From the NCBI GenBank assembly GCA_051294375.1, contig CM119271.1:13640372-13704371 (forward strand): a DNA stretch of 64,000 nt. Direction: 5' to 3'. This DNA is from Paraspadella gotoi. Its lineage: Eukaryota; Animalia; Chaetognatha. Shown in pieces: positions 30,480 through 64,000 of this stretch (positions are counted from its first letter, which is position 1; each line of letters opens with the position of its first letter). A program made the translations under genes and the position numbers. Under the pieces are notes generated by a model that saw only the letters and a program-made list of their open reading frames with translations, was not told where the DNA came from and did not search any database.

Positions 30480-31520
30480 AGTATAATGATTAAAAGTTTA
30501 ATTTCATAATGGAGTGCAGTGCAAAAGTTTACTCTTGATGTATGAAGATAATGGCCAAAACAGAGAAAAAACTTCGTAGTATTGCAACTACATACAACCA
30601 CCAAACCCAGAACAGACATTCAACCACTACCAAAACAGGCAATCATAACAAAAGAACACGAAATATAAAACATGAAAACATCACAGATATCTACGCAATC
30701 CCAACCAATCTCTTGATGTCCCCCTTTCGGGAAGAAAATATTGAAGAAGACAAGCCATATGCATGCATCCCATACATCCCGAACATAGCTCAATCACTTA
30801 AAAGATCACTCTTAAAGCCGGCATCAACACTTGTTTCACATCAGGCAACAAAATATAAGGACATTCTTTGCACCAAAAAACCGCACTCACCCTGACCCAA
30901 CAAAAAAAAGGTATCTATAAATACAACTGCCCATGTTCTGAGAAAGCCGTGTATATTGGCCAAAACCTCTCGCAGTTTTCAGACACGCTGGAAGGACATG
31001 AAAGAGCAATTGGAAAAGAGCAATGGCAACACTCCGGAATCTCCCCAACACTATAAAGATTGTCCCACTAACCCCGGATTTTTGCCAACGCAAGTATTAT
31101 TAAAAACGATGTCCGGAAAAAACAAAAAAAACTGATCCATGACCTTAAAACTCGCGAAGCACTGAAATTCGACGTCACAGTAGTGGACCTGGGAGGGTCT
31201 TAATGAAGACTGGGGAGCCTACGTGAAAACTGACGCGTGGAAACGTGTCTTTAATGACTTATGAAGGGTGGGGGGCCAACCCTTTTTGGGTTCTTCTGAC
31301 CACTTTAAGGTCATTTAGTCTTTAGCCTTTTCATTTGTTATTGTGTCTCTCTCTCTTTATTTCTCTATTTCTTACTTTGTAAAAAGTTTGTTTGTTAATT
31401 CTTTTTCTTCCACTGAAGATGACATAGAAACTTATGTCGAAATATATGGGGAAAATTTATAAATTTTTTTTTTGCACTGCACTCCATTGTGAAATTAAAC
31501 TTTTTAATCAAGTGATAATA
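30480..31520 (+). mobile_element. Penelope-like retroelement, 5'-truncated and frameshifted (RT thumb/GIY-YIG endonuclease remnant)
   Basis: Translates to IPYIPNIAQSLKR..., KKGIYKYNCPCSEKAVYIGQ (GIY-YIG) and ...GLNEDWGAYVKTDAW (TGA 31262-31264). Inverted pLTR-like segment: 30486-30525 versus 31471-31510. Confidence 0.85.
31402..31455 (+). ncRNA. Minimal type I hammerhead ribozyme in the Penelope pLTR
   Basis: Stem I TTTTCTTCCA/TGGGGAAAA; core CTGAAGA 31413-31419; stem II GACATA..TATGTC; GAAA 31439-31442; palindromic ATAT stem III; AUA cleavage triplet. Confidence 0.8.
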
Positions 31521-31943
31521 TTTTTTTAGAGAAGAAGAGAAAAAAAGAAAGAAAAATAAAATAAAATATAAGAAGACAAAAGAGATGAGAAGATAAAAGA
31601 AGAGAAGAGAAGAGAAGAGAAGAGAAGAGAAAAAAGAGAAAAGAAGAGAAGAGAAAAGAAAAAAAGAAAAGAGAAAAGACGATATCATTTTTATTTTCTT
31701 TTTTGGCTTCGTCAGTAATGAATTCCTTTGTCTTTATCGTCATCGTCGTCGTAGTCGTCGTCACTGTCGTCGTCTTGACTTGACTTGACTTGAAAGGCAA
31801 CGAGGGACTACCTGACTACCTCGTCGTCGTCGTCGTCGTCGTCGTTCATCTGTCGACGCCTGTCGCCATTGTCGTCGTCGTCGTCAATGAGGTATTCTGC
31901 CCGTCTCTTCGACGACCCTGGCCATGTTCCAATCCTACTCTCT

Positions 31944-31996
<53 letters not shown>

Positions 31997-32284
31997 CTCC
32001 CTCTCTCTCCCTCTCTCTCTCTCTCTCTCCTCTCCTCTCTCCTCTCTCTCCCTCTCTCTCTCCTCTCTCCCTCCTCTCTCTCTCCTCTCTCCCTCTCTCT
32101 CTCTCTCCCTCTCTTCTCTCTCTCTCTCACTCTCTCTCTCTCTCTCTCTCCGTTCTCCCTCTTTCTGTCTCTATCCCGTCTCAGTCCTCTCATCTTGCTC
32201 CCTGTCCTCGTCCTGCTCTCTCTCTCTCTCTCCTTGCCCCGCCCTGCTCTCTTCCCGTTCCCCCCCCCCTGATGTTGATGACAG

Positions 32285-32329
32285 ATCCAAGTTCCCATCA
32301 TTTTTCAGCCTCGTTGACCTCGTGGTGTA
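32285..32329 (+). CDS. Possible small upstream exon of the TANC/rols gene
   Basis: acag|...|gtaagg after a pyrimidine tract; phase 1-1; reads PSSHHFSASLTSWC; no recognisable homology. Confidence 0.35.
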
Positions 32330-33165
32330 GTAAGGCGACCACGTTACGATCTACTACATACGGAAATCGTTCCATCCTTACTTTACTTTACTTTCATCTA
32401 ATCCTTACCTTACCTTACCTCGTTTATTTTTCTGCGCATAACGTAATTACTTTTCTTGCTCTTACTTACTTTAATCCACTTTATTTTATTATACTTTACG
32501 AAACTCGACTTACTGTAAAAACCGTAATCCGATTTACTTTATTTGATCTTGATTTACTTTACTAACTTGAATTTACTTCAATTCAATTTACTTTACTTTG
32601 TCTTACTTTAACTTTACTTAACTTTATTCTACTTTATTTAACTATTTTTTTCATACTTCACTTCTATTCAGTTTAATCACATCGATCGGATATTTTTTTT
32701 CGTCCTCATTCTAATTCAAATCTCCCATCAGTTAAATTTCACAAAAGACTCACTTTAAGGGTTAATTCGCCGTCATTGTACAATGTAAATCACTCTTTCC
32801 CATCGAACCGCCGCCGCAACAGCCGCCGCTTCCCCCGCCGCTTCCGCCGCCGCAGTCGCAGCCGAATTTTCGAGGGAAAAAAAAGGGTTTTTTTCTCTCC
32901 CTTTTGTTTTTCTTTTCGTTTATCGAAATCGTAAATAGGAAAAACAACAACAGGAGGCGCGCATATGAAAGCGATTCGTCGTCGTTGTTGTTATTGTTGT
33001 TATTTGTTTTGTTTTGTGATAGGTTATTTAATTTTCTGGAAGTAGGTTGATTTTGTAAATTGGTTAAGAGCAAAATGGCTATCGTTTCGAGATATGATGA
33101 AACAGTTTCGAATTAATTGTCTTATCGTCATGATTGAAGCTTTTGCCTTTATTTCCAATTTTTAA

Positions 33166-33196
<31 letters not shown>

Positions 33197-33806
33197 CCCT
33201 TAGAAAAGTGCCAATCGTTATTAAGTTGGTATAATTTAAAAATTAGGATACATAGTTTCTTTCGACCGAGTCGATTCGGCTCGCGGGTTAGTTGACAATT
33301 TTCTATCATTCGTATTATATTTGCGAAGTTTCTTTAGACTTCATGCCTACGAGGTCGCAAGTTCGAGGCGTCTCCCATCCAAAAAAGAACGACAAGAGTT
33401 TCTGAAACTTTTAAAATTTTATTGTGATCCAAAAACCCGTAGAAACTAAGTTTCAGACGAGCAGACGCTTAGTAAAAGATTCGCTCAAGAGATTGAATGA
33501 CGATTCGTCAGAAATCAGACCAAAAATGAAGCTTTAAAAAGACGGCTTCAATCACTAAAAAAGGGACGTGGTCAATGGTCATTTGGTCAATGGTCAATGG
33601 TCAATGGTCATATGGTCAATGGTCATATGGTCAATGGTCATATGGTCAATGGTCATATGGTCAATGGTCAATTGTCATATTTGACCATAAAAAAGAAAGA
33701 AACGAGTGGCGATATTTCTACAATAGTATTTTATTCTATATCATTGTATACATATTTAATTATTAATTAATATTTAATATTTTCCCTCTCATCTTCCTCT
33801 CTACAG

Positions 33807-34040
33807 CCACGCCCACTTCCGACTCGGACACCCGCGCCGTCACTTCCTCCGCATCCGTCGACGCCCTCTTCGAGACGGCGGCGCCCTTCGACGACGGTCC
33901 CGCGCCGACCAAGCCGACGAGCAAGCAGACGAGCAAGCAGACGAGCAAGCCGACCCACAAGTCCGTCACCGTCAAGAGAACCAAGTCCATCAACGAGATT
34001 CAGTCCAGACCCATCATTCCGAGGCCCCACTCCATCACCA
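33807..34040 (+). CDS. rols: TANC/rolling-pebbles-like protein, N-terminal exon
   Basis: ctacag| ... |gtgagt, phase 1-1. Ends IIPRPHSIT, resembling TANC PMPRPNSVAAT; joins in frame to the 58913 exon. Confidence 0.7.
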
Positions 34041-35262
34041 GTGAGTACTCTGATGGGGTTGGTTAAACGGAATGTGGTGATGTTGTGGCGTAGGATTGAT
34101 GTTGAGACTTGATGTTGTTCGTGGTTGTTAGTTTTATTTAACGACTTCATCGGAAAATAAAAACACATTTTTTTCACAGAATTGTTTGTTTTTTGTCGGT
34201 AAAATGTCGGTAAATACCGTTGTTGTTTAACGTAATTACGTAATTCAAAACCTGCATTACCAATCTCATTTGCATATATCATTTTAAGTTTTGAAAAGGT
34301 TTGATTCTTTATTTTAGATTCTCACGTGAGAATAAAAAGTAAGCGGTTTTTTTGTTACAAAACCTAGCCGGATTCTTTTAACTAAAACTGCTCACCGTGA
34401 CGCCATTTCGGCGCATTTAAAAGCTCAAGCACACGCCGCGCAACTCGAAAAAGAGTAGAGAATTCTCTGGCTCCAACCGCCGTAACGGGGGACGAGGAGC
34501 TGAGGAACTTAATGGAGCGGAAATATGGGAAATCCTGAGAATCACTCCTTCGACAAAAAAAAAAAGAGAAAGACTGACAAAAGAGCAAATTAAAACGGGG
34601 ACTCGGGGATTAAAGGGGATAAAAGGAGATCGAGGGATTTAAAGGGGAATCGGGACGCTAATGACTTAGACCGAGCCAAATAGTTCGTACTCCCAGCCCA
34701 GCGAGATAGAGAGCGAGACGATCTTTTTAATAAAAAGTCTTTTGCTACGTCGAAGCCGTAGAGAATCGCGCGGAGCAATCTGTCAACGACAAAGCAGAAG
34801 ATTCGACTGGCGGGAAAATTGGAAACGAGGCTGAAGAGAAAAGCGAACAAAGGAACATCGCGAACGGTTGGGGTTTCTTTTTGCTTTGAGCGCGGGTAGA
34901 AATAATTAATTGTCTGTGTAGTTTCTTGATAGACCAAAGCCGGTTTTAAATTTCTTTTAGGCTTCTATCGCTTTACTTTAAAGCAAAAATTATGATAAAT
35001 ACATTTATCACGGGATGAGAACCACCGGTTAACCACAGTATAAAAAGCTAAATAAAATATTGTAACGAATGTATCCGTTTATTAAATAAATGAGCTCTCC
35101 GGCCCCCGACTTGGGACAGGCGAAGTTCTCAATATGTTTATAATAAATAAATAAAAAGGAATAATAAAAACCAAGCATGTATTAATTTAATCCATTTAGC
35201 ACCGAAAAAAGCCTTTAAAATTCGAACAAGAGAACAACCAATTTCAATCAAAAGAATCGAAA

Positions 35263-35680
35263 ATGTGGCGGGAAGACGTCGCCGGCCGCCAGCGCCGCCT
35301 TCCCGCCAAATCCTGTCCTTACCTTCGATCATCGCCGGCGTCTATTCGTTTTCGGCCGCTGACTTCCTGCGGCGTCGGCGGCGGCGGCAGCAGCCATGTC
35401 GATCTCAGCCGCAAATCATCGGTCTCTTCGTCGGGCAGCTTCGTCTCCGTCGATTCCAATCGATCCTTGACGCCGCTGACGACGACGCCGACCACGAAGA
35501 CGTCGCCGAAAGGCCCGTCGACGCCGCAGATGACGGACCGGCGTCGGTGGGCGTCGCCGATTACTCCGGTTTTGATCGAAAGGAGCGCCGGACGAGGGCG
35601 TTCCCGTCCTTTGTCGACGCCGAGTTGGACGGCGGTAGAGGCGAAGGATGAAGAGACGTTGAGATTGCCGCAGAGTCACG
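35263..35680 (+). CDS. Probable alternative first coding exon of the TANC/rols gene
   Basis: ATG-initiated, GC-rich, Ser/Thr/Pro-rich 139 codons ending in a phase-1 donor G|gtgagt compatible with the 58913 acceptor; no good upstream acceptor. Confidence 0.55.
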
Positions 35681-35919
35681 GTGAGTGACACATTCTCCGC
35701 GTAACGGTTAGTGTCACAATTGAATTCTGTGTAAGGGTCTCACTGCGAGGTGACAAAGGCCGCGACTGGTAGTGACAAAGTGACTGGTAGTGACAAAGAC
35801 CACGACTGGTAGTGGCACCTCACGCGTCAGAGTTTTAAAAGTAAAGTGACATGATCATAGATCAATGTCAACCTTTGAACGTAAATATAACAAACATTTA
35901 AGATAAGAATAGACAATAA

Positions 35920-36525
35920 GGCGTAGTGAAAGTTACATACGAAAATTCTAAAAGTCAATTATGAACAACATACCATCAGTGAACATTAATTTGTAAAAAA
36001 AATTAATTTTATGTTTTTTAATTTTCGCAGTAGGCTATATTTATATATAGTACTATCCTTATAAAATCGAAAAATTTCAAAATAAGCTTTTCTTAATTTT
36101 GATTGCAGATTTGAATTCCCCATCAAAAGTTGATAAAAGAAAATATAAATCATTTTTAAAAATTCTGACATTAAGTGGGTTAAAAATGAAAAAAACTATA
36201 TTTAATATATAAAAAGTTAATTTTCAGCTTAAAATATAGCTTTTTCTAATTTTTAACCCATTTAATAAAGGAATTTTTCAAAAAGAGTTATATTTCTTTT
36301 TATCAACTTTTTATGACAAATCCAAATCTGCAAAAAAATCTTTAAAAAAACTGTTTTGAAATTTTAACATTTATTGGTTTAGTACTAGTATAAATATGGC
36401 CTCCTGCGTAAATTGTAAAATTTATTATAAATTTTTTTATTACATAAATGTTCATTAGTATAATGTTGTTCGTTCCTCACTTTTAGAATTTTAATTAAAG
36501 TTGAATTTAGGAATTTTACTACGCC
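35920..36525. mobile_element. Non-autonomous DNA transposon/MITE, Kolobok-like termini
   Basis: ATAA-GGCGTAGTGAA ... TTTACTACGCC-TTAA: TIRs with GG..CC ends and a TTAA-like target. Second copy at 1821-2477; fragments at ~20000-20700 and ~21200-22180. Confidence 0.75.
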
Positions 36526-37725
36526 TTAATAGACAATCAGTCTTTTCAGGTCGAAAGTAATTTTATGTTTTAGCAGTTGAAATTTTCAAGAAATATCCAT
36601 GCATTTTTGTATGAATTTAACATTTTAAGCTCGAATGTATTTATGATTATGTGCAATAATGATATTGAAATAAATCATGTTTATTTGAACTCGGGGGGGG
36701 GGGAACTATTTGGTTTTCTTTTCCAAAACTCGATAATTCGTTTCCTCTTTTTCTGTTTCGTCGTAAAGTTTCTCATTATTTTTTTGTTTGGCGAAATAGA
36801 TTGAAATATTTTTTTTTCTCCCTCTTCGTTTCCCACTCACTGTTTCTCCCTCTCTCTCTCTCTATCTCCGGATTTTCAGTGTTTGCCAAATACTCTCTAC
36901 GGTTGACTTCGTTCAAAGCGAAAGAAGGAGGAATTTTTGAATCGTCGTCTTCGTCGTCGTTGTCGTCGTCTTTGACGCAGTGGCTCTTCTCCTGGTGGCC
37001 GATGGCGGCGCTGTTATTCTGGTGGATCCTCGACGCGCCGGACTCCGGCGTCGTTTCGTGGCGTCCCGGCGTCGTTATCGCCGTTTTGGCGGCGACGCGA
37101 AAGTGGATGGCCTCGCCGGAGATTTTTCGAGGTGGGCGTGGCGACGATTAACGCAGAAACGACAGTTCCGACGACGAAGATTCTTACAGAATCGGCAGTT
37201 ACCGAAGACATTTTTCGCGTTTGTAATTTTCTATTTACGGCGAAAACAAACAAAAAATTAATGTAAAACTTTCGCGGCGTTTGATAATTAAGACCGAATA
37301 GAGGTATATATTACAAGCCGACAAAATTCTCATCAAAAATGCAACTAAATTGCTATCCATATAAAATTCTGGGAGGTAACGGCGTGTTCGCTACTTAACT
37401 GGTGGTCACTTGACCATCCCACTCATATACGGCCGCGTGCGATCTCTACATTTTGAATGAAACTATAGACTCGATTTTTACTATGACCATAAGAATTGCA
37501 AAGTTAACTCCAGCTGATGACGTTTCACTTTACAAACTGTTAGCCAATTGTATAAAACCCATCCGAACGTAAAAGCCAATTTTGATATTTGAAATGAAAA
37601 TTTTAAAATCTGACTACCAAATTTTAAAGAGAGCATCTTTTTCTCTTAGTAATTGACCAACTTTTTGATATTGGGAACAAATCTTACGTCGGAAAACGAT
37701 TAAATTATGGTGGACTAAAATACAT

Positions 37726-37875
37726 CAACCGTTCATCAGCGGCCATTGGTGTTTGCGTCCCAACCCAAAAGTCCGGGGTTTCAGCCCAGTTAAGAGTGGC
37801 GGGGCTCTTCATCCGCCTGTAACACGGTGTTATAGCTTGATCCGTAGCTCAGGGACTGATTATATTGAACTGTTG
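37726..37875 (+). mobile_element. tRNA-derived SINE-like element, internally deleted copy
   Basis: Aligns by eye with 45447-45625. Confidence 0.7.
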
Positions 37876-38176
37876 TCACTATAGTTAGTACTAACAATCA
37901 TTAATGTTTTTAAAACAAATTAGTAATTTTACATCGACCGGTATAAGAATTTAAAAACATTAATCTCGTCGGGTATTCATTTATATCATGTCAGAACATC
38001 AAATTATGCAAAAAAGATGTCTATTTAATTAACTCAAATTATTTAACTACCGATAATGATTGTGGGCAGATCCAACACTTTTTGCTCAAACTTGTTTTAT
38101 GCTTCAGTTGTGGGTAAGTTTAGTCTTAAAGGTTTACAAGGAAATTTGAATTGTTACGATTTTATTATTAATAAGT

Positions 38177-38221
38177 TGCAGACATGTTTCGACTCAGAGA
38201 TTTTCGAGTCTTCATCAGCGC
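38177..38221 (-). ncRNA. Minimal type I hammerhead ribozyme (probable solo Penelope pLTR)
   Basis: Minus strand reads GCG-CTGATGA-A-GACTC-gaaaatctct-GAGTC-GAAA-CATGTC-TGC: canonical core, palindromic ACATGT stem III, GUC cleavage site, short stem I. Confidence 0.8.
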
Positions 38222-38996
38222 TTTTGACAGTTGTGAATAATGGAACAATTTGTGAGTTAAAGAAAGAGAGAGAGACAGAAGAGGTTAAAGTTTCCAACAA
38301 ATAATTGAGATTAGTGGTCAGTTCAGAGGACAGATTTAGTTTAGGCTAGATAGAATAAGTGGTGAAAAGAAATGAAATTTGGTGAAGGTGAGAGAGAGAG
38401 AGAAATAAATAAGTAATTACATTTGAGCAATGTACAACAAAGATAAAATTAAACAAACTTGATTTGTGTCTAATAACAAAATTGCAATAAATTAATTTTG
38501 AAGTTTGAAAAATTGAAATGAATGAAATTTGAAATATAAGAGTTTAATTCAGAGGGATAGATAAGTAAAGACTTTAGTGAAATATAAGATGTACTAAAGA
38601 GCTCAAAATGAGCAAGCCCCCCCAGGTCTTATGAATGAAAGGCATGGCTGATGGTGCCGGGTCATTGGCGCGTCATAGGCTGAGAGGACAGTGGGGTTGA
38701 TCTCAAGTTTGCTGGCTCGGGCAGCGATCCCTGAGGAAAGAGACCCAGAGCTACCCTAATGTCCCTCTGGCCTGATATGCCTGCCGAAGGTTAAAATACA
38801 AATTGTTTAACATTATCGAAAATCCAAGGGAAAAATAACGGAAGTTTAAAAATTTGTTTATACTTCTCGAAAAGTCATATCACAAGTTCACAAACACGAA
38901 TCAACTTAAAAAACACGATTTCGGAAATACTGGAAGAAAAAACTAAGATTTAACTTTAATTTAACTTAACAATTCTTGATCTTGAATTCGGCTGTC

Positions 38997-39496
38997 TTAG
39001 TCTCTGCAAACGTAGAACGGTTGAGTGTAGCTACCCCTATAAAAAAAGTGGGACAACACAGCTATCGTTTAAATGGTATTGAATGAGCATTAAAGTAGCG
39101 AGATGCATACAAGAACCAAATTCATAATCAGTTTTATTTTTTCTCTTACTCGTTGACGCATTCCCTAAGAGTTCCAGTATAAGGATCTCCCCCGCGGCAG
39201 CATTTGGCAGCATCGGCCTCGCAGCCAGACGCTCCAAGCGGGATGCAAGAAGAGCGCTTGAAGACGCGCCCGAACCGATAACCGTGATGACCTATATGTC
39301 GCCTGCTTGCTTGCGTCTCTGAAGTCTATGATAAAATAGAAATTGATGTTAATTAAATTGCAAAAATGAATTAAACTTTATTACAGAAGGTAAGTGGTCG
39401 ATAAAAACTTACGAGGTAACAGATAATTCCGAGGACGAGGAAGACTCCGAGAAGGGAAAACCGGAGTCTCGTCTTGGAGAAAGCGGTGAGACCCAT
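38997..39496 (-). CDS. Secreted cystine-knot (ICK/knottin, framework C-C-CC-C-C) prepropeptide, 99 aa, 3 exons
   Basis: Exons 39496-39413, 39325-39150 and 39036-38997, all GT-AG and in frame: MGLTAFSKTRLRFSLLGVFLVLGIICYL|TSETQASRRHIGHHGYRFGRVFKRSSCIPLGASGCEADAAKCCRGGDPYTGTLRECVN(E)|GSYTQPFYVCRD*. Confidence 0.85.
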
Positions 39497-40224
39497 GGCT
39501 GTTTGAGCGTAAATCTGCGAAAAATTTGAATTAGAGACTAAAGTATGAAAAAAATGATTAATGACAAATATAAGCAAATATTAAAAGCAAATATAGAAGA
39601 AAAAAAAGGCGCTTCGAATGCCAAATCACAATTACTTATCATAAAGTGATTTTAAAAATTGGGTTTGGACGAGGAAGAGCGAGAGAAAGAGTCGAAATGG
39701 CAAAAGCCGATTGGCTGAGTGAGTGTCTTTTCGCGAATTCGACTGACCAATCACATTTCTCTAAATGGAGTCAGTCAGGTGTTTTGCAAAACAGATATAG
39801 ATAGTGTTATCTATGGTTCGTTATTAAGGTTTTTATGTTCTTCTTGAAAGTATTTACTTTTTAATTGTACTGTTATTTATGAGAAAGTAATAAATGTTTT
39901 CTTCCTCTTTATCACTGATAGTGATATAACTTTTATTTTATTTTCTAACGTTACAAAGGAATTTAAGTTAATGATTCACCATTTAAAACGAACTTTAAAA
40001 TTTTATTTTAATATTATATAGTATTATAATATGAAAGTTGCCAAATTACTTGTTTCACTATCTTTATTTATTTTTTTAAGATTTAAAAATAACTATAATT
40101 TATGATTTTATTTATTATAGTATTATATTTTATATAGTATTATATATGTTGCCTCAGACGAAAAAAGTGCGTTTTTAGCTATAGTACCCGAAGCATAGAG
40201 TATGGAATCTCTGGGGACGCTATT

Positions 40225-44171: not shown

Positions 44172-44252
44172 ATGTTTGGCGCGTTTTTTTCGCCTTTGAT
44201 TATTCTAGCGATAATTTTGTCGTCAAGCGGAACTGAAATCGCTGGCGGCGGC

Positions 44253-44314
<62 letters not shown>

Positions 44315-46983
44315 CCACTGCTCCATCACGGACATTCATGTGGACGCGGTGGTGGCGGTGGACACGAGCAATTCTGTGAACTGGGACGACTACGGTTTGG
44401 GGATGAAGTTTGTGGGAAGATTCATCGATTATCTTGGAAAGGTATGAATAAAAAATAAATAAATATATAATGAATATATAATTATGAAAAAATAGGAGAA
44501 AAAAATTCTTAAATAAACAAATATTGATTAAAATTTTTTTTTCCTCCTCTCTTTATTTTTCTCCAAATGGAAAATATTTATTTTTGATTATCAACTAATT
44601 AATTAATTAATTAATCAATTAATTATTTTATTTATTTATTTATTTATTTATTTATTAATTAATTAATTATTAATAATTATTTTAAAAGTATTTATTTTGA
44701 TATTTTACTAGTCATTCTTCGAAATCTTCTCTTTAAAAAAAAAAAGAAAGTATTTTAGTAAAAGAGAAACCGACTGGCCCTCCCAACTTCTTAAACCAAG
44801 CACGCCAACCGCACACGTTTCGGGATGTTCCAATACTCCGACAAAATCCAAACGGACATTCCTTNNNNNNNNNNTATTTTGATATTTTACCAGTCATTCT
44901 TCGAAATCTTCTCTTTAAAAAAAAAAGAAAGTATTTTAGTAAAAGAGAAACCGACGGCCCTCCCAACTTCTCAAACCAAGCACGCCAACGGCACGCGTTT
45001 CGGGATGTTCCANNNNNNNNNNNNNNNNNNNNNNNNNNNNNNNNNNNNNNNNNNNNNNNNNNNNNNNNNNNNNNNNNNNNNNNNNNNNNNNNNNNNNNNN
45101 NNNNNNNNNNNNNNNNNNNNNNNNNNNNNNNNNNNNNNNNNNNNNNNNNNNNNNNNNNNNNNNNNNNNNNNNNNNNNNNNNNNNNNNNNNNNNNNNNNNN
45201 NNNNNNNNNNNNNNNNNNNNNNNNNNNNNNNNNNNNNNNNNNNNNNNNNNNNNNNNNNNNNNNNNNNNNNNNNTTTTTTATTTTTAGGATGTGGGAAGAT
45301 AGAAGGGGGTCAAATAGAAGGGGGTCAAATAGGTATACTAGATGTTTGGACTTGAAGGGGTTATATTTTTTTTTTAAATTATCCCATTTCTGATTTCAGC
45401 TTCAATTCATGATTTTAATTTTAAGGTAAGGTGGAATAAAATCCACCAACCGTTCATCAGCGGGCGTTGGTGCAGTAGGCAAGTCATTCGCCTCCCAACC
45501 CAAAGGTCCGGGGTTCTAGCCCGGTGGTCGCCAAGCAGTTAAGAGGGACGGGGCGCTTAACCCGCCTGTAACTCGGTGTTACAGACTGATCCGAAGCTCA
45601 GGGACTCCTTTATATTGAACGGTTTTGTTATTAACTCATAACAATTATTACTGTCTTTTCAAAGATTAAGTTAATAATAGAATTGGTTAAAGATTAAGGT
45701 TAGCAATTTGCAGTTAACCATTTTAAGGTTAGGGGGAAAACTTATTAATTTTAGGTTAGAGATTAGGAATTAAGATTATGTATTAGGTGAGGGTTAGGTT
45801 AGGGTTAGTTAATGGGATTAGAGTTTCGGGATAAGGAACTGAAATGAGGCGCTTTCGAAAAAATAGTGCTCAAATTTTGATGATTTTCAAAAAAAAAAAA
45901 CTTAATCGTGTATGAAAAGTTTCTTTCATTCATTTACAGATTTTATTTAGCTCTATTTAGAATCTATTCATTTAAATATTTTACTTAAAAAGTAATCCCA
46001 TTCATCCTCGTTCCCCACCCCCGATTGACCACCCGCAAAGACCCACTAACCACGACCGACCGACCAAGACCGCCGCTATCCGCCTCGGCTTCGTCATCAC
46101 CGACGGTGAGAGTCACCAGAAGGCGGTCGCCGCCGCCGCCGCCGCTCTCGTCGCCGCCAACGTCTCCGTCTATGGAATCGGCGTCGGCGGCGTCAATTTG
46201 ACCGAGTTGACGGTCGTCGCTGGAGGGAACGAGAATAATACGTTTTACGCCAAGAATTACGGGGAACTGAGAGAGATAGAGCGGGTACGGATTGATTGAT
46301 TGATTGATTGGTTGGTTGAATGGTTGGTTGGTTGGTAGGTTTATTGGTTTGATTGATGGAATGAGTGATTGGATGGTTAATTGTTTGGTTGATTGATTGG
46401 ATCATTGATTGGTTTACTGGTAGGTTGGTTGATTGGTTTGATTGATTGATTGATTGGTTGCTTGATCGATTTGATTTATCGATTGATTTATTAATTCATT
46501 TATTTATTCATTTATTTAGAGAAGTCAGGGTTTGGAATCGTATTAATATAGCGATATTTTTTATTTATTTATTTATTTATTTCGGATTAGGATTTATTTA
46601 TTCATTTAATTCATTAAATTTTTTTTCTTTATTTACTTTTTTTTTAATTAATATATTGATTATTATGATTGACTAATAAATCGATTGAATGAAATGAATG
46701 TTCATTGATTGATTGATTGATTGCTTTCTTGAGAAATTGATTCATTCATAAATTAACTGTCTTCGTGATTGATTGATTGAGTAATTAATTAATTTACTAA
46801 ATTATTTATTATTCCAACTACTGATTGATTGATCTATTTACCCTCTCAGCGATTCCACCAACGCGTCTGCAAAGAGATTATGGACTCGAATCGATTCGTG
46901 GAAATCGCGAAAATCTCCGGCGGCGTTTTGGTCGCTATCATCGCAGCCATCCTCGTGGGGATGTTTATTCTTTATCGGGCGCA

Positions 46984-47058
<75 letters not shown>

Positions 47059-47192
47059 GCGTAAAAGATTGGCAATGAGGCAGACAGTCCAACATATATC
47101 ATTGGTCGTACTAATTTCAATGAAGAGAATGATAACACATCTTCAGATAAAACAGAATACATACTGTTTAGTTTTATAACGAAGCATAACCC

Positions 47193-47244
<52 letters not shown>

Positions 47245-47279
47245 GTGACTCGAAACAAAATAAACAACTGCTCTTGTAT

Positions 47280-47327
<48 letters not shown>

Positions 47328-47485
47328 AGTCCCTGATTCGCAGCAAGCTCGAACTGGCGCGACTCCAGGCGGCGGAAGAAGCGATCAAGAAATCGTCGTC
47401 CGACGTCAACCCAATGTACAAGACGCCCCTGACTAAAATCAATCCTGGCGCGCTCGGCGTCGCTTTGAACGGCGCCCAGGAGTGA
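44172..47485 (+). CDS. Single-VWA (MIDAS) type I membrane protein with an integrin-beta-like cytoplasmic tail
   Basis: Exons: 44172-44441 (signal peptide, poly-Gly, C..VVAVDTSNS); 44981 into the gap (HANGTRFGMF; the duplicate at 44801-44864 continues QYSDKIQTDIP); ~46041-46284 (FVITDGES..VYGIGVG); 46850-46984 (C, TM); 47330-47485 (..NPMYKTPLTKINPG..*). AATAAA at 47695. Confidence 0.85.
45447..45625 (+). mobile_element. tRNA(Gly-like)-derived SINE-like element with ~10-bp terminal inverted repeats
   Basis: A box TGGTGCAGTAGG, CTCCCAA loop, B box GGTTCTAGCCC; ends CAACCGTTCA...TGAACGGTT; second copy at 37726. Confidence 0.7.
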
Positions 47486-48113
47486 CGCCGGCGTGGAGGG
47501 GTGTGGAGCGACCGACGCCTTGAAATTTGAATGACGAGATGGCGTGGTCGGCGTCATCGTATTGACGCTGCGAAGAGACAAGAAGATTGTAATCTTAATT
47601 AGTATAATTTTATTTTTTTTTGTAAAGCGTTAACACTTTTTCCTTGTACTAAAAGTTTGGTTGTTTTTTTTGTCTCAAAATACGTTAATAACTGAATAAA
47701 TATTCCATGAAATAAGTTGCAATCAGACACAGAATTAATAAAAATGTTTTACGAAAAAAAAATTAAAAAAAAAAGCGAGAGCCTCAACTTGCCTGAATTC
47801 GCCTGGCAGCGAAACGGGCTAAACGTCCATCACAGATTTGAACAAAAAAATTGTTCACTTGGAAGTTTTAGAATCTCTCTCTGTCTCTCTGACTCTCTCT
47901 CTATCTCTCTTTTTTTCTCTCTTTCTCTCTCTCCGACCGCCCGCCCGTCCGCCCGTCCGCCCGTCCGCCCGTCCGTCCGTCCGTCCGTCCGTCCGTCCGT
48001 CCGTCCTTCCGTCCTTCCGTCCGTCCGTCCGTCCGGTCAACGAATTTAGTCCGCATTTCATTGATTAAAACAATTTCGTCGGAATTTATGATGCGATTTG
48101 CATTTCGATGCCG

Positions 48114-48114
<1 letters not shown>

Positions 48115-48154
<40 letters not shown>

Positions 48155-48207
48155 GAGAGAGAGGGATATACAGAGCAGTTGTTTATTTTGTTTGAGTCAA
48201 TTAGAGA

Positions 48208-48248
<41 letters not shown>

Positions 48249-48297
48249 CTATCAACGCAGTTTGTTATTTTGTTTCGAGTATATAGAGAAGAGGAGA

Positions 48298-48345
<48 letters not shown>

Positions 48346-48436
48346 GAGAGAGAAAGAAAGAGCAGACGAGAGAGGAATATACAAGACAGCAGTTGTTAAT
48401 CTTGGGTTTCGGTCACTATTGAGAGAGGGAGAGAGC

Positions 48437-48481
<45 letters not shown>

Positions 48482-48681
48482 AAGAGACGAGAGAGAGAGG
48501 AAATATACAAGAGCAGGTTGTTAATTTTGTTCGGGAGTCACATTGAGAGAGGGAGAGAGAAAAAAAAAGAGATAGAGGAGAGAGAGAGGAGAGAGAGACG
48601 AGAGAAAGAAAGAGAGACGAGAGAGAGAGAGGATATACAAGACAGTTGTTAATACTTGTTTCGAGTCACATTGAGAAGAGG

Positions 48682-48720
<39 letters not shown>

Positions 48721-48920
48721 CAGAGAGGAGAAAGAAAGAGACAGAGAGAGAGAGGAACAAGAGCAGTTGTTAATTTTGTTTCGAGTGCTACATTGGAGAG
48801 AGGGAGAGAGAGAGAGATAGGAGAGTAGAGAGAGGAGAGAAAGAAAGAGACAGAGAGAGAGAGGATATACAAGAGCACTTGTTATTTTGTTTCGAGTCCA
48901 CATTTGAGAGAGGGAGAGAC

Positions 48921-48969
<49 letters not shown>

Positions 48970-49059
48970 AGAGACAGAGAGAGAGAGGATAATAACAAGA
49001 GCAGTTGTTAATTTTGTTTCGAGTCAACATTGAGAGAGGGAGAGAGAGAGAGATAGAGG

Positions 49060-49090
<31 letters not shown>

Positions 49091-49170
49091 AAGAAGAGAC
49101 AGAGAGAGAGAGGATATACAAGAGCAGTTGTTAATTTTGGTTTCGAGTCACACATTGAGAGAGAGAGAGA
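48115..49170. repeat. Composite satellite: ~45-bp core alternating with (GA)n
   Basis: ggatatacaagagcagttgttaattttgtttcgagtcacattg about 9 times; inverted copy at 47238-47285. Confidence 0.8.
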
Positions 49171-49292
49171 GAGAGATGAGAGAAAGAGGGGGAGAGAAGA
49201 GAAGCAGAATACAGAACAGAGAACAGAGAGAGAGAAAGATTACAGACTGGCAGGCAGAAAGCTCCGATCCATGGAGGGAGAGAGAGAAAGCG

Positions 49293-49349
<57 letters not shown>

Positions 49350-50267
49350 NNNNNNNNNNNNNNNNNNNNNNNNNGAGAGAGAGAGAGAGAGAGAGAATAG
49401 TTGACAAAGGAAAGTTGAGAAGTCGAGAGAGAAGATGAATTTCAACTAAAACCGACGAGGACTTCAACGAACAAGATGACAACAACGACGACGACGACGA
49501 AGATGACGACGACGAAGATGACGACTACAACAACGACGACGACCAAGATGACGACTACAACAACGACGAAGATGACGACGACCGAATTAAAATTCGGACG
49601 ATATTATTTTTAATCGCGTTTTAAACGACGTTTAAATTTTAAGAATATTTTTTCCATTTTTATTAATATTCCTCGAGAAAAGAATGAAAAAAAAAAGCCG
49701 GTAGTAATTTTTACGAAAAAAAAATACATTTTTTTTCATTTTCTGTAAAATTTTTACATCCTTATATTTCGCCTCGTTCTCACTTCAGGGTGAAATTTTT
49801 ATCGCGTTTTTCATTAATCTCCACTTTCCTTTTTGTACTTTTTTTAATATCAGAATGTGCTTCAGATTACATTTCTGTTACACATTTTCAGTTAATTTAT
49901 TATTTTAATAATAGTATAATTTTATACATATATTTAATTTTCTATCTATCTTTTCCGTTTTCTTTTCATTAACGTTTTCATCTTTTTTTTCCTTCTCACT
50001 TTTTCACATTTTTCATCACATTTTTCTCTTCTCTTTTTTTTTCATTATCACTTATAGTTTTTATTCTTTTATGAAGAGAGAGAGAAAAAATGAGATTTTT
50101 AAATCGAGGGTCAGCATTTTTCCCTTCGTTCTTCGCCGCCAGCCGCCAGCCGCAGCCACGCCGTCGCCGCGGCGCTCCCGCCAACTTCTATAGCATCGCA
50201 TTCATTCATTGATATTCCGAGCGAAAGAAAGGAATTTTCTTTCAACAGCTGGACGAAGGGAGATTAC

Positions 50268-51561: not shown

Positions 51562-51711
51562 AGTTATTATTTCACGCTTAAAGATATGGCATCCTATGAT
51601 TCCTATCAATATTACTGACATTATTAGTTTATTAATTTATGAGTTATATTGTTTGTAATAAATAAATAAAATACTATTCATAACAATATTAATTAAAAAC
51701 CAAAATCAAAC

Positions 51712-53172
51712 CCGCGGATTCCTGCCCAGGTTTGACAAACACGTGATCGTAGAAAAACCGTGGCGATGGAAAAAATATGGGAATGCCGACCGAGTAGAAT
51801 TCACAAAGACGAAAAGTGAATGTAGAGTAGGGAATGTATACGGCGGCTTTGTACTGTGACAACGACTCGAGTTTAAATTCACGGGTCACGTGAGAATCTT
51901 TCACGTAGCGCGTTTCCACTTCAGGCCTCAAATAAGATTCCACGTTTCGTGAAAAGTTGCTTTGATACGAATGAAACGTAAATATCAGCACCGTATCTTT
52001 CGTAGCCTTAAATTCGATATTCGGCAAATGGTAACCGTTATATGTTGGTACCAATGGCGCGTTCAAGCCCGTATAATACCTCATGTATTCTAAATCGTAT
52101 CTGTTCGAACTGCCGATAAAGTTTTCTTTATTTTTCGACCAATTTATGATTTGTTTATCGAAAGATTTCCATTCCTTCGCAGTGCAGCGGCCAACGTTGT
52201 AACGATGTATCGGTATAACGACGATGGACCGGTTAAACGGAGCGAATAAAAGACACATAGAAGCGGGAAAGGCGCAAATGAAAACGTCTACATTTTTTAT
52301 CAAGGGGTGATCTTTGTAAAATTCGTAATTGTCCTTTGCCCAATTCGTTCCTTGTCGAGTACTGTGCGCGGCGTAAGATTTGAGCGGCGGAGAAACTTCG
52401 TCTATCACAGACACTCCGGGAAATTTGTTGACACGAGGATAAAATTTTATTTTCCCTTGCGAACCCATCAATAAAATGTTGCTGCCCATGGCTGACACTG
52501 TCGATGCCAACCAAATTCGGGTGCCATGGTGATGATCTGCCACTGCGAATGTGAGATTTTTGTGAAGAGAAATCCGTTTTGATAATTTGGATTTCAGAAA
52601 AAGCGAAGCTTTATGTTTCAGAGTTTCTCCGGAGTTTAGTAAATTTTCGATCAAATCTTGGTTCGTTTTAACACATGAGAACTTTTCATATCCTGGAAAT
52701 CGATAACCGAGAGATAAAAGCGATTTTATCCACATTTGTATCAAGTAAATATCTTCTATTTCAACAAAACCGCGTTCGTACAAATCAACCCAAAGTAACT
52801 CCAGTTGCTCGATAAAATCTTTCCCATCGTTTTTCCATTTTCTCAAATAACTTTCGACGATCAGTTTGACCAAAGCGGAACTCTGTTCGTGCAATTGCTT
52901 TTCGGCTTCCAAATGGTCAGAATCATTGGTCGCATTTATCTCTCGCACAACCAAGGGTCTCGGCAATATTCCCAGAGATAATCCCAGTCTAGGAAAGAGA
53001 GCTTGGGCGGCGTAAGCTCGCCATATGTCCGACACGCGATCGGACACCGTCGCGGGAAGATACAAGGACCAAAACGCGTCGTAAAAGTGAAGTGTAGCTT
53101 GAGCGTTGAAGGGTGTTGCGAGCTTAGATGGGACACGAATAACGGGTTTCGGTTTGAAAGCTTTTTTGGCAT
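51712..53172 (-). CDS. STELLO/DUF288 C-terminal part plus a second GT-like domain, large exon
   Basis: PFNAQATL..LYLPATVSDRVSDIWRAY..LWVDLYERGFVEIEDI..W (STELLO), then VDVFICAFPASMC..HRYNVGRC..AAVYIPYS..EFYSVGIPIFFPS; phase-1 splice sites at both ends. Confidence 0.85.
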
Positions 53173-53207
53173 CTAGAATAATGATATAAAAAAACAATAA
53201 TCGTGGT

Positions 53208-53500
53208 AGCGCGAGGTATCTCAGCAACTGACGTAAGGGTTGCGGACCCTCAGTGACCGCCTCCTGTTACTGGCATGTTTAGACCGGCTCCGTCACGTAT
53301 AAGACAGAACCGGGATACCCAGGGATTGAACCCGGTATGGCAACGGGAGGATAGCCTGTGATACCCGGGGCGTGGGGTATCTCACCAACTGGCGTAGGGG
53401 CTGCGGACCCTCAGTGACCGCCTCCTGTCACTGGCATGTTTATACCGGCACCGTCACATTTAAGCCAGAACCGGGATACCCAGGGATTGAACCCGGGACG
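53208..53500 (-). mobile_element. Two tandem copies of a tRNA-related SINE-like repeat
   Basis: ~160-bp direct repeat; the minus strand carries a B box, CCGGGTTCAATCCC. Confidence 0.6.
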
Positions 53501-53883
53501 CACGGATGGAATGAGATGATTTAGACATTGAGACGAGGCTAAGGACGGACGGACGGCTGTTTTAAGTCGTCTGACATGTCGTCGGGCATTTCATAGGTTC
53601 ACCCCGCCTTCAGTCGTGACCCGGTGGCTCATGACCGCTATGTACCGGGTTCAATCCCAACCCGGTCTCTACCCTGCGGGAAGCGTGAGGATGGCCGTAA
53701 AGTTCCTTGGAGGCCTGGAAAACCCCCAAACCTGGTTCCAAGCCCAGGACGCGTTCCATGGCTGCTAGAGGGCGTTATAGCTCCTTATCCACATACATCG
53801 ATTAGGTTTCAACTGTATTATTTAATAATAATAGCTTTTTCGTACAATTTTGGTAATTTAAAAGGAAAAAGAAAAAAAATTAC

Positions 53884-54186
53884 CTGGAAAATTATTGACG
53901 CTCAAACCAACTTTTCGGTGGCGTTTGAAAAAGACTGGACTTTTTCTCGTCGATCTATAAATAGCATCGACGTCCGGTTGAAGATCTGCGACCGATTGCA
54001 AGACGCCGAATTTAACTGATTTCGGGTCATTTGTGGGTTTTAGCTCGGGATTGAAAGTAGATTTTGTTTCATTGAAAGAGAAAGGAAAGCCACGAGGCCA
54101 AATGGGATAATCGGGACCGCCCAAAACTGAGAACGGATTGAAGGCCAAAGTTTCTTCCTCGATCACTGGTTCGACGATCCCATGTT
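53884..54186 (-). CDS. STELLO/DUF288 glycosyltransferase exon
   Basis: FNPF..WPRGFP..VLQSVADLQPDVDAIYR; cacag| and |gtaatt, phase 1-1. Confidence 0.88.
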
Positions 54187-54451
54187 CTGTGAGAGAAAAA
54201 TCTTTTTTTTTTTTTTTTTTGGAAAGCAATAGCTTGGTATTAAATGTTGAAATGCTTTTACGGGTTTAATTTCGATGCTATTAGGAAATTGAAACCAAAA
54301 AATATAAAATTTGCCATAAGCTATCGTGCTGGTCGTGTTAAGATCATATTAACATAATATCAGAGGAAAACCTTAAAAGCTCTCGCGGTCTATTTAAATA
54401 TTAATATTAATGAAAATTTCTCCACCGTCGGGTCAATCCAATAATTCTTAC

Positions 54452-54710
54452 TTCCCGGGTCGCTGACATAAGTCGCGATATTTAAAGTTGGATCCGGAGA
54501 CGATCCGTTCATCCAAAATTTCAACATGTTCCTGTCGTCAAAATCCCAAATAGCTTTCGCACCGTGTGCAATTGCGAACAAGTAGCCCAAGTTTTTTCGG
54601 TCAGCGTTTTTCCAGGGCAATCGGTTGGCAAAGTCCTTTTGTATTTTCGACTGGGCTGCGTCTGACAGGAATATAATGTTTTCTCCCAGAGTTGATTCAA
54701 AAAAGTAATT
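54452..54710 (-). CDS. STELLO/DUF288 glycosyltransferase exon
   Basis: LPWKNADRKNLGYLFAIAHGAKAIWDFDDRN; tttcag| and |gtaag. Confidence 0.88.
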
Positions 54711-55060
54711 CTGAAAAAAAAAAAAAAATTTTGTAAGAATAAGTCTTTTTTTTTCTTCAAATTTCAAACAACAAAATGCTATCGTCACGATATTAATTTA
54801 TCAAACCCTAAATCAGATGTAAATTAGAATCCAAATTACGATAGTTACTTCTTTTTTTTAATGTTAAATAAATATTTATTGAACGCGCAATGCAACAGAT
54901 AAGAAAGATAAGAATCGAGAAAGAATACCAAACATCGCAGGAGTAATCAAGCCCCCAAAATCGGATCGGAGACTTGATAAAATAAGATGTAGTAAAAAAT
55001 CGATCAATCCATCATGAAAAAAGTCCTGGCGAGATAGCATCATGCAATGGTCACACTTAC

Positions 55061-59044: not shown

Positions 59045-59954
59045 GTGAGAGAGAGAGAGGGGGGGGAGAGAGAGAGAGAGAGAGACAGAGAGAGAGAGAG
59101 AGATAATTAATCACCGGGGAATTTAATCATTATTCGATGATTACTGATAACTAGTTACCACTCGTTAATCATTTAACATTAATTAATAAAAAATAAAAAA
59201 CCGATCAATGATTTTTGATTGCAATTATCTCAAAGTATTGATCATTAATTACTCTAATCGGTGAAAACTAATCGGTAATCGTCAATCAATCAATGTGTAA
59301 TTCCAAATAGGAATCCTCACTTCCCAGGCGAAGACTTAATTTTTGATTACTAATAACCAAACTATCATAACTAATCGTTACTAACAGAAATCCCGAACAT
59401 CAACCATAAACCATTAATCTTTCCCTACCCACGATCAAAAATTCGCAACAGAAAAAAAAAACGCGGGAGAGAGAAAATATAAGTACATCCGCATACTAAG
59501 CGATACTTTTATCATCCAAGGATGGGCTCAGGGAGACGGGGGGGGGCGGCGGCGGAGAGGGGGGGGCGAAAGAGAAAATAAAATACAGGCTCGAGTCCTT
59601 GACCGATGACCACTTCCCTCCCAGGCAGCCCCCTTTTCCCCACGCCTCCCAAACTGCAATGCATTCAATATTAGGCCCTATTTTCGGAAAGCGGCCCATC
59701 CCCGGACTTAATTTTAACCTTAATTACTAACTATAATTCTTTTTTATATTATTCGATCCTTAACCTGAATTTAATCTTTTACTAAAAACTCTAATCCCTA
59801 ACCCTAATCCCTAACCTATTCTCTAACCTAATCTTTATCCTATCCCTTAATCTAATCTTTAAACCCAAAAAACAAATTTCAAATTCTAAATTTAACCTGA
59901 AATAGGACGTTTTCGAAAAAGAATGCCTCATTATTGAAACTCCACCCCCTCTAG

Positions 59955-60106
59955 GCTGCGCCGCCTCCGCCGCTCGGCCACGCCCATTTCCGCCGCTTCG
60001 GACGCCGGAACTCCGCCTGAAAGCGATGACGTTCGAGATTCCTCGACCGGAACACGAGCCTTCGCTCTTCGTGGGCAGAGGGTGGGTCTTCAAGGAGATG
60101 GTCGAG
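59955..60106 (+). CDS. rols: TANC/rols-like exon (start of the NTPase domain)
   Basis: LRLKAMTFEIP..FVGRGWVFKEM resembles TANC LKPLLFEVP..FVGRDWLF; ctag| and |gtgagt. Confidence 0.85.
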
Positions 60107-60936
60107 GTGAGTTCGTTGTGGGGATGTGGGGAATGTTATGATTTTTTTGTGTGGTTGTGGTAGTTGATTTTTTTGTTTTAGTCGTTTTTATGTTTTTTCT
60201 TTTGTTTTGTGGTTGTTTTTTTTTGGGGGGGGGGCTGTTTGCTGTTGTTTATATAGTTGCAATTGGTCATTGTTTGATTGCCGCTGTTGTGTTCATTGTT
60301 TTGTTTATTTATGTAAACATTTGTTGTAAAAATTTAGCTAAAAATCCATAGTACTTTCACTCTCTCTCCCATAATTTGGTGTAAAATTTCACAATTTATC
60401 AAAAGCTCGAAACAGAGTAAAATAAAATCGTTGTTGCATCAAAAACAAATCTATTTGTTAATCAAAAACACAACGAAACGAAAGGATACTATCGAATAGT
60501 ACTTACACAAAAAATGATAAAAATAACTATTTCTTATAGCGAACATAGATTATGTAGTTAATCTCGATAAAATGTTAATTATTGATTGATCGTAAATTAC
60601 AAACGACGTTTAAAAAAAAGAATGAAGAAAATTATTATCTCTTCTTAGTTAAAACGAAAAGCCTTGGCCAAAGTATTGACAATTTTTTACCTGATCGGAT
60701 TTCCTATATTCCATTTTCGCGCCAAGGATTTCTAAGAAAAGGTTCGCCGCTCGAGGGGGCCGCTTCCGACGCCGCTTCCGACGCCGCCCGCCCGCCCGTT
60801 TGGCGTTCAAGGATGAAGACGTGGAAGGAGAGGAAAAAGCGACCTTGTCGAGCTTAAACGAATGGGGTCTTTCAGACGCCGTCTCCTCGGGGAAGAGAAA
60901 AAGATAATTTGATCGATGGCTTTTAAATTTTCGCTC

Positions 60937-61022
<86 letters not shown>

Positions 61023-61100
61023 CTCTCACCTCTCTCTCTCTCTCTATTTTCTTCTTCTCTCTCTCTCACTCTCTCTCTCTCTCTCTCGCGGGGTCTTTTG

Positions 61101-61144
<44 letters not shown>

Positions 61145-61177
61145 CTCTCTCTCTCTCTTTTCTCGCGGGGTCTTATT

Positions 61178-61251
<74 letters not shown>

Positions 61252-61818
61252 GCCAATTTTCTCACCGAATTTCCCCTTCGTACGTCATTTTTCCAGCCGC
61301 GACATTTTTTTCAACATTCGTCGGTCGCCTCTCTTTTAATATTTCCCCCTTATATTTCCTATTTTCCTCTTCCATTAACGTTTATCATTGTTAATCACTT
61401 CCTCATAATCATCGTCTTTTTCATCTCATCACGGTAACCCCGTGATCACGTCATCTTCCGGTCCCAAGTCTCATTACCCTCATTCACTCTCCATTTTCTT
61501 TTTCTCCCATTTCCTTCATTTTCTCTCCACATTTTTCCAATTTTCTTACATTTCCTCCCAATTTGGTTTTACCTTAATTCCCCAGCCATCTTTCCTTCTC
61601 TCCCTCTCTCTCGCTCTGTGACTAGACCTTACTTTCTCTTTCTCTCTCTCTCTCTCATCTCTCTTTCTTTCTCTTTCTTTTTCATATCTCTCTCTCTCTC
61701 TCTCTCTCTCTGACTCTTTCTTTTTTCCTTTTTCTTTCTCTCTCCTTTCCCCCTCCGTTTCTGGGTCTCGCCGTTCCCCCTTACTCTCTCTCCCTCCCTC
61801 TCTGCCCGTTTCTCTCTC

Positions 61819-61854
<36 letters not shown>

Positions 61855-62662
61855 ACTATTTCTTATTATTTTCCTATACCTCTCTCCTCTTCCTTTACTC
61901 TCTCTCTCTCTCTCCTCTCCCTCTCACTCCCTCTCTCTCTCCCCCTCTCATATTTTCAAATATATTCCCTTCCTCTCCCTCCATGCGTAACGAGAGATCG
62001 AGAGGGCAACGGCCGATCCGCGGAATAAACGACATGAGGAAAGCGAGAATCGCGTCTTCGCTTCGAAAACGAGGCTCGAATTCAAGGATTTTTTTTTCTT
62101 TTTGGCGGCAGAAATTAAATGGGATCTTGAATTTATCGCTCAGACCAGCCACCCTCGCGGGCTCGAAAAGCGGAATGGGGGAAGGCGCGGGGCAGTGGAT
62201 GCAATTTATGAAAGGAACAAATTTGATTTAGAACCGGTTGGTCTTTTTTGATGGAATTACCACCAGTTGAGTCGCCTTCAGTCGCCTGTTGATAACCGTT
62301 GATCACTGTTTATTCCAGTGAAATGAAGTTCCGGGCGTGAGCTCGCAATCTCGTTCGTAGCTTCCGAATTTAATTTTACCTCGAAATTCCCTAAAAGGAT
62401 ATTTTTTCCGCTACGATGATAAAATTTATTTGAGGAAAATTTCAGGCTATACAGTATTTAGCATTGATATTCCCAGCGAGAATTGATTATGGTTACACAA
62501 ATCTCGTGGCAATCTAATGTCAGGGGCAAGATAGATTATTTAACGAACGAATGGATATTGGCTAATTCCTCTGTTAGTTTTCGAAATATGTATGTCGTAG
62601 TTTGCCTTTCAAATTACAATAACCTTGTACTCCCTTTCTCTCCCCCCCCCCTCACTTAACAG

Positions 62663-63929: not shown

Positions 63930-64000
63930 GTGAGTGAGTTTTCGTGGGGGGGAGAGATGTGAAGTGGGCGTGGCAACGTGGATTCGTTTGAGACTATTTT

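Follow-up and report, generated by a model that had tools for sequence, protein, structure and literature searches.

A five-exon gene of Paraspadella gotoi encoding a predicted single-VWA membrane protein with an integrin-beta-like tail

Could one short polypeptide combine the ligand-binding head of one kind of adhesion protein with the cytoplasmic tail of another, and if so, what would such a protein do? This question is raised by a gene lying in a 64,000-nucleotide stretch of DNA from the chaetognath Paraspadella gotoi (contig CM119271.1, positions 13,640,372 to 13,704,371, forward strand; hereafter the window, in whose own numbering all coordinates are given). A first-pass annotation had described the product as a lone VWA domain joined directly to an integrin-beta-type tail. 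The gene is spliced, consists of five exons and encodes a small membrane protein with a single VWA domain near the membrane, and it belongs to a conserved family of receptors, apparently undescribed so far, in which a head of alpha-I-like type is combined with a beta-like tail.

Gene structure and splicing

The predicted product, roughly 330 residues in length, comprises in this order a signal peptide, 23 glycines, a VWA domain between two cysteines, 14 further residues, one transmembrane (TM) helix and a 54-residue tail (Table 1). The signal-peptide-like N-terminus, poly-Gly, DTSNS, TDG, the cysteine pair, the single TM helix and the tail were all found where the first-pass annotation had placed them, and we infer a cell-surface location and a disulfide between the two cysteines. 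The glycine run had been interpreted as a linker; it lies N-terminal to the VWA domain, where relatives carry other low-complexity sequence, so that after signal cleavage it would form a free tail, and a function as linker was rejected on account of this position. The DNA of the window is eukaryotic; its introns are AT-rich and full of microsatellites, and it contains a number of N gaps.

Table 1. Positions of the features of the gene within the window.
Feature	Position	Strand	Remarks
Exon 1	44172..44441	+	ATG, signal-peptide-like segment, poly-Gly, first Cys, VWA strand 1; phase-0 GT donor
Hydrophobic signal-peptide-like segment	~44172-44231	+	judged by eye
23-Gly run	44244-44312	+	exon 1
First Cys	44319-44321	+	exon 1
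MIDAS DxSxS (DTSNS)	44361-44375	+	exon 1, VWA strand 1
Near-duplicate of intron end and exon 2 start	44693..44864	+	left of 10-N gap
21 exon-2 codons inside near-duplicate	44801-44863	+	74% identical to P0074 residues 89-107
Visible exon 2 start	44981..45012	+	VWA strand 2; inferred acceptor, 44948 being an alternative
261-N gap	45013..45273	.	expected, from contig and P0074 lengths, to contain remainder of exon 2 with MIDAS Thr
Exon 3	46041..46284	+	C-terminal VWA half; Pfam VWA; contig match with 0 differences
TDG	46099-46107	+	exon 3
Exon 4	46850..46984	+	last VWA helix, second Cys, 14-residue stalk, TM; 135 nt
Second Cys	46868-46870	+	exon 4
TM helix	~46913-46975	+	exon 4
First cytoplasmic Arg	46976-46978	+	exon 4
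Exon 5, coding part	47330..47485	+	membrane-proximal helix, NPMY, K-x-P, distal NP, stop; 156 nt
NPMY	47408-47419	+	exon 5; followed by K-x-P
Distal NP	47441-47446	+	exon 5; not conserved
3' UTR	47486..47742	+	contig implies extension to at least 47621
AATAAA signals	47695 and 47737	+	within 3' UTR region

Splicing was followed in run X1, whose RNA label is the tool's guess and is not on record, and which contains 0.26 of the words sampled from 45280-47740. One 1033-nt contig of this run is identical to 46040-46284 (0 differences) and runs on directly into the 30 nt that open exon 4 at 46850, so that exon 3 begins at 46041 and the VWA exon is joined to the TM exon, a 565-nt intron with GT-AG borders having been removed between them. 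The 427 nt past exon 3 in the contig correspond to exon 4, the coding part of exon 5 and a UTR portion of 136 nt that stops at a poly-T run; this account, together with the GT-AG borders, supports the exon 4-5 junction by length, the exon 3-4 junction being the one read directly (reads were placed on exon 3). The size of the contig past exon 3 leaves no space for leg domains, no Cys-rich frame occurs in introns 3 and 4, and the relatives P0074 and P0150 (see below) have two ectodomain cysteines each, in agreement with the earlier statement that PSI, hybrid and EGF legs are missing.

Exon 2 is visible in part. The acceptor at 44981 is favoured by alignment to P0074, and the end of the exon falls inside the 261-N gap. 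Stretches 44693-44832 and 44875-45012, with the 10-N gap between them, are identical in 134 of 140 columns, a repeat that is likely to be an assembly overlap. The whole exon was estimated at ~194-233 nt, or about 64 residues: P0074 requires 64 residues across this interval, and the contig has 362 nt ahead of exon 3, enough for exon 2, part of the GGC run and the 129 nt of exon 1 that lie past that run. Translations of exons 1, 4 and 5 are 63%, 48% and 47% identical to P0074 residues 47-87, 238-283 and 286-321, respectively.

The head and the relatives of the protein

Exon 3 matches the Pfam VWA family (E 5.8e-9 and 1.7e-9), and the VWA domain (PF00092, a Rossmann-like fold) scores above the Pfam cut-off. 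In the heads of P0074 and P0150, VWA and VWA_2 are the only Pfam families with meaningful scores, while Integrin_beta (beta-I), PSI, EGF, Anth_Ig and Ant_C gave no match at E<=1 in either protein and the thrombospondin repeat gave none; the distinction between VWA and Integrin_beta suggested as a check in the first-pass annotation thus came out in favour of VWA. A profile search of PDB ranked collagen VI, mussel PTMP1 and the alpha-M/alpha-X I domains above ANTXR2, the best named matches being collagen VI alpha-3, PTMP1 and the alpha-M I domain, and no beta-I domain occurred among the best 60 of 116 matches; phmmer searches of PDB with exon 3, and with exon 5 at E<=10, returned no match. Foldseek agrees, with alpha-I and collagen VI as best folds of a structure model (pLDDT 65.7, built from three sequences) that was used for fold class and secondary structure only. 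By sequence and fold, the head is thus classed as a collagen-VI/integrin-alpha-I type VWA and not as a beta-I domain, which indicates that the protein is not a truncated integrin beta: its design would be chimera-like, and not that of a beta chain reduced in size. The VWAs of alpha-I, collagen VI, cochlin and vitrin are its best sequence and fold matches and share the DxSxS..T..D arrangement of the MIDAS; unlike them, the window VWA stands alone with its own TM anchor, has neither propeller nor triple helix and is ~20-27% identical. DxSxS, Thr and Asp are all present in P0074 and P0150, and in the window DxSxS and Asp are seen while the Thr position falls inside the 261-N gap.

In a phmmer search with exon 3 against 1.84 billion representatives, 227 matches were obtained, the best 150 of which were mostly multi-VWA proteins; the best single-domain score among these 150 belonged to P0074 (336 aa, 55% identity). 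This protein is collinear with all five window exons, with nothing extra, and both P0074 and P0150 (393 aa) start with a signal peptide and a low-complexity spacer, followed by a VWA domain with one Cys on either side, the TM and the tail. The same architecture thus does recur in relatives, as the first-pass annotation had proposed to look for. A third relative, P0109, is a fragment that ends just past its TM. Each of the three relatives forms a JGI/IMG cluster with no other member, on a contig of 1046-1720 nt, and we consider it likely that these records are transcript-derived. In P0150, some 37 residues are also inserted close to where its VWA domain ends (residues ~243-283).

A FastTree of the C-terminal VWA half (69 columns, midpoint root, 53 rows, about 148 of the 200 collected proteins being left out) grouped the window protein, P0074, P0150, P0109 and five fragments together, 9 of the 53 rows in all, as a single clade with a support of 0.88. 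In the ENA fragments P0119, P0124 and P0146, the alignment breaks off where exon 3 has its donor and Val follows, as intron read-through would give. The family-profile search (48 matches of 7998 scored) returned P0074 and P0109, then vitrin, cochlin and collagen VI at ~25% identity; among these 48 matches there was no named protein with the VWA-TM-tail layout and no new member with TM and tail, in a search that missed P0150 and is therefore incomplete. Word-seeded homologue searches, weak as evidence, gave 0 of 108 candidates for exon 5 and 0 of 316 for exon 3, and scans of metagenomes for the locus gave 0 of 164 stretches with P0074 and 0 of 99 with P0150. The atlas search retrieved only unnamed short clusters with the tail and generic VWA clusters below 0.9 with P0074. 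In full-text literature searches, most subscription journals lying outside their scope, none of the titles or abstract openings returned described a lone VWA-TM-beta-tail protein of animals; the supplementary tables of bioRxiv 2020.04.29.069435 list truncated integrin beta forms, which could bear on novelty. Even if the tail does not bind talin, the gene would represent an unannotated receptor family that, among the sequences searched, is otherwise found only in environmental records.

The cytoplasmic tail, possible function and competing explanations

The comparison of the tail rests on three sequences, namely those of the window, P0074 and P0150. As in integrin beta, the TM is followed by a membrane-proximal helix with equal spacing of basic, hydrophobic and Ala positions and by N-x-x-Y-K-x-P about 28-29 residues from the membrane. 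R/K at +6 to +8, a hydrophobic residue at +11, Ala at +12, Leu at +14 and Y-K-x-P are kept, A12, L14 and Y-K-x-P being invariant, and the N of N-x-x-Y lies at +29 from the first cytoplasmic basic residue in all three tails, compared with +28 in beta-1D and beta-3 as worked out from the PDB alignment, peptides given in PMC12237089 and motifs in bioRxiv 2020.04.29.069435. N-x-x-Y-K-x-P occurs in every tail, with NPMY in two of them and N-K-I-Y in P0150. Although P0150 has thus lost the Pro of NPxY, its Tyr is followed by a stretch rich in Thr that resembles the beta-1 inter-NPxY linker. The three-tail profile placed beta-1D (3g9w_C), the closest tail, first of 177,635 PDB sequences at a sub-threshold E of 0.48, in an alignment over 36 positions in which the HDRREFAKFE helix is ungapped and NPxYKSP is reached with one gap. 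Integrin_b_cyt was the only Pfam match of the P0074 tail (E 0.098, model positions 8-40 of 44) and the second of 2 families matched by the window tail (E 0.11), whereas the P0150 tail had no Pfam match; the two matches to this family, which the first-pass annotation had proposed to look for, both lie below the curated cut-off (12.7 and 12.8 bits, against 23.4). Moreover, the tails had been picked for examination as NPxY carriers, which makes these weak matches partly circular. As a small control, 12 of the 200 collected proteins have a C-terminal TM, with an N-x-x-Y-type motif in P0074 and P0150 only.

On the other hand, several hallmarks of integrin beta are missing. A Trp before NPxY, which is conserved in talin-binding beta tails and important for talin according to PMC12637224, occurs in none of the three tails, nor does any carry an aromatic residue ahead of N-x-x-Y. 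The HDR Asp position is occupied by S, E and R, and the distal NxxY (kindlin site) is absent from all three. The degenerate distal NPxY (NPGA) of the first-pass annotation, whose conservation had been set beforehand as a refutation test, is lacking in P0074 and P0150; the bare NP is confined to the window tail and a conserved distal NP was rejected. What is supported of the integrin-beta-type tail is the register across membrane-proximal helix and N-x-x-Y in three of three tails; homology to beta tails is suggestive and falls short of proof. Membership of the integrin beta family was ruled out, the window family having neither beta-I head, PSI, hybrid, EGF and beta-tail domains nor the Trp and distal motif.

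It is an evenly balanced prospect that the protein acts as a single-chain adhesion receptor, in which the VWA domain would bind an extracellular ligand through the metal ion of its MIDAS and the beta-type helix and N-x-x-Y would recruit talin or another PTB/FERM adaptor inside the cell, with no alpha chain involved. Ligand binding would be Mg/Mn-dependent, judging from DxSxS, T and D in P0074 and P0150 and DxSxS and D in the window. Coupling to talin or a PTB protein has about the same chance of being correct as of being wrong, and talin as the specific adaptor is a somewhat weaker candidate; an integrin beta gene is, by contrast, the probable source of the TM-tail, acquired through domain shuffling, if well short of certain. 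Without legs and without an alpha-chain clasp, such a receptor would be expected to act, when under load, as a constitutive clutch and not as an inside-out switch. If the tail binds talin, the protein would be a natural minimal integrin of ~330 residues and one chain, with its head 14 residues from the membrane, and the beta tail would be a portable module that animals are able to shuffle onto other heads. Talin force coupling would then be separable from the role of talin in activating heterodimers, a distinction drawn so far with the amoeba protein SibA (PMC12686525). A bolder version, which we regard as tentative and rather unlikely, is that of a working one-chain integrin: an animal lineage would have grafted an alpha-I-type head onto an integrin-beta TM and tail, and the TM would connect the last helix of the VWA to the talin-binding one in a nearly continuous rod, while actomyosin tension might tune the affinity of the MIDAS with no need for legs, an alpha chain or kindlin. 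The structure model predicts a single helix over residues 237 to 314, which takes in the last helix of the VWA domain, the TM and the membrane-proximal part of the tail; its confidence is low at 256-263.

As an idea, a single-chain talin-coupled VWA receptor already has precedents in SibA and ANTXR2; APP is another non-integrin NPxY ligand of talin (PMC11597407), whose F3 domain binds several non-integrin partners (PMC6032930). Dictyostelium SibA has a much larger ectodomain than the window protein. Similarly to the window family, it is a type I protein with an extracellular VWA, an NPxY tail and no alpha partner, and it binds talin via the proximal NPxY and bears force, as described in PMC9197732 and PMC12686525. 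SibA, compared here by description only, has two NPxY motifs against at most one in the window family, for which reason Sib membership was ruled out, and it was absent among the named matches of the family-profile and atlas searches. ANTXR1/2 (TEM8/CMG2) are single-chain animal receptors with one VWA, one TM and known talin coupling; according to PMC13473502, ANTXR2 binds talin when ligand-free and internalises collagen VI. Among the atlas clusters with a TM, ANTXR2 came closest (score 0.82, a lead only), and ANTXR VWAs matched in PDB at E 1e-10, but they rank far below collagen VI and alpha-M, a beta-like tail is no ANTXR feature, and the window family lacks the Ig-like stalk and Ant_C (no Anth_Ig or Ant_C match at E<=1) and has a stalk of 14 residues, so that ANTXR membership, which the first-pass annotation had named as a refuting outcome, was ruled out. 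Apicomplexan TRAP/MIC2 are likewise single-chain I-domain adhesins with a TM (atlas 0.79, fold match 4f1j) and a cytoskeleton-linked tail, but the window family has no thrombospondin repeat and a different tail.

Among competing explanations, an endocytic or scavenger receptor, whose VWA takes matrix or microbial ligands and whose NPxY recruits clathrin-linked PTB adaptors of Dab, Numb or ARH type instead of talin, is rather unlikely. LDL-receptor-type signals carry a Phe or Tyr two residues before the N, which these tails do not, and the beta-tail likeness takes in the membrane-proximal helix and a constant spacing from the membrane, features that a sorting signal would not require; it is nevertheless in keeping with this explanation that there is one N-x-x-Y only and no talin-contact Trp. 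Beta tails and NPxY motifs themselves bind many PTB proteins besides talin, including Dab and Numb (PMC4030831), and the uptake of collagen VI by ANTXR2, the atlas lead mentioned above (PMC13473502), points in the same direction.

It is improbable that the tail is beta-like by convergence or chance, in which case the gene would encode a VWA-TM protein specific to its lineage, with an amphipathic helix and a Tyr motif in the tail that serve another partner. Every tail match is sub-threshold, one or more members lack the Pro, Trp, HDR Asp or distal motif, and the head is unrelated to beta-I, all of which would fit such a scenario; yet two tails only 39% identical match the same single family out of the 24,736 in Pfam, beta-1D comes first in an independent search of PDB, and the register is a single residue off that of beta. 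Distinctly less probable still is a decoy or modulator of the ordinary integrins of the organism, in which the VWA would serve just to localise the protein, and its beta-like TM-tail would titrate talin or form pairs with alpha chains. The juxtamembrane register is beta-like and a tail without the distal motif could perhaps bind talin without kindlin, but LLxxxHDRKE is described as the alpha-interacting beta-tail motif (KLxxxD is also given) in bioRxiv 2020.04.29.069435, and its Asp is replaced in all three tails; furthermore, the head contains no beta-I domain and both full-length relatives keep an intact MIDAS, as one would expect of a ligand-binding protein. A mis-assembled or truncated true integrin beta with leg exons hidden in gaps is barely tenable, since the 261-N gap and the local duplication inside the gene, which could suggest it, are countered by the position of that gap within the VWA domain, which needs it for completion, by introns 3 and 4 being sequenced throughout, by the splice of exon 3 to exon 4, by the layout common to two independent full-length proteins and by the lack of an Integrin_beta match at E<=1, so that hidden leg exons are effectively refuted.

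Other features of the window

A ~200-nt element with a tRNA-like A/B-box, recognized by eye, is present in two copies that are 73% identical (45420-45625 and 37700-37874); it is probably a SINE, and ARAGORN and Rfam returned nothing in the window, this element included. Near-duplicate translations also occur at 23521-23600 and 24051-24140, several copies of a GC-rich repeated element flank small gaps at 10971-16510 (with similar translations at 10971, 14281 and 15811), and 48100-49400 is an array of ~100-nt units, each made of a conserved core and a GA microsatellite. GC-rich exon-like frames are found at 28800-39520 (for example 28839-29075 on the minus strand, 33767-34090 and 35151-35830 on the plus strand and 39149-39520 on the minus strand), with no Pfam match at 1e-3. 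A STELLO glycosyltransferase gene is located on the minus strand at 51689-54797 (Pfam E 7.3e-9) and probably continues to 50890; its 525-codon open frame extends beyond the STELLO match by some 330 residues, for which Pfam gave nothing at 1e-3. Finally, exons on the plus strand at 59906-63961, with no Pfam match at 1e-3, encode a P-loop (GTGFGKT) and an AFHFCQADN motif, which we take to be TANC/rolling-pebbles-like.
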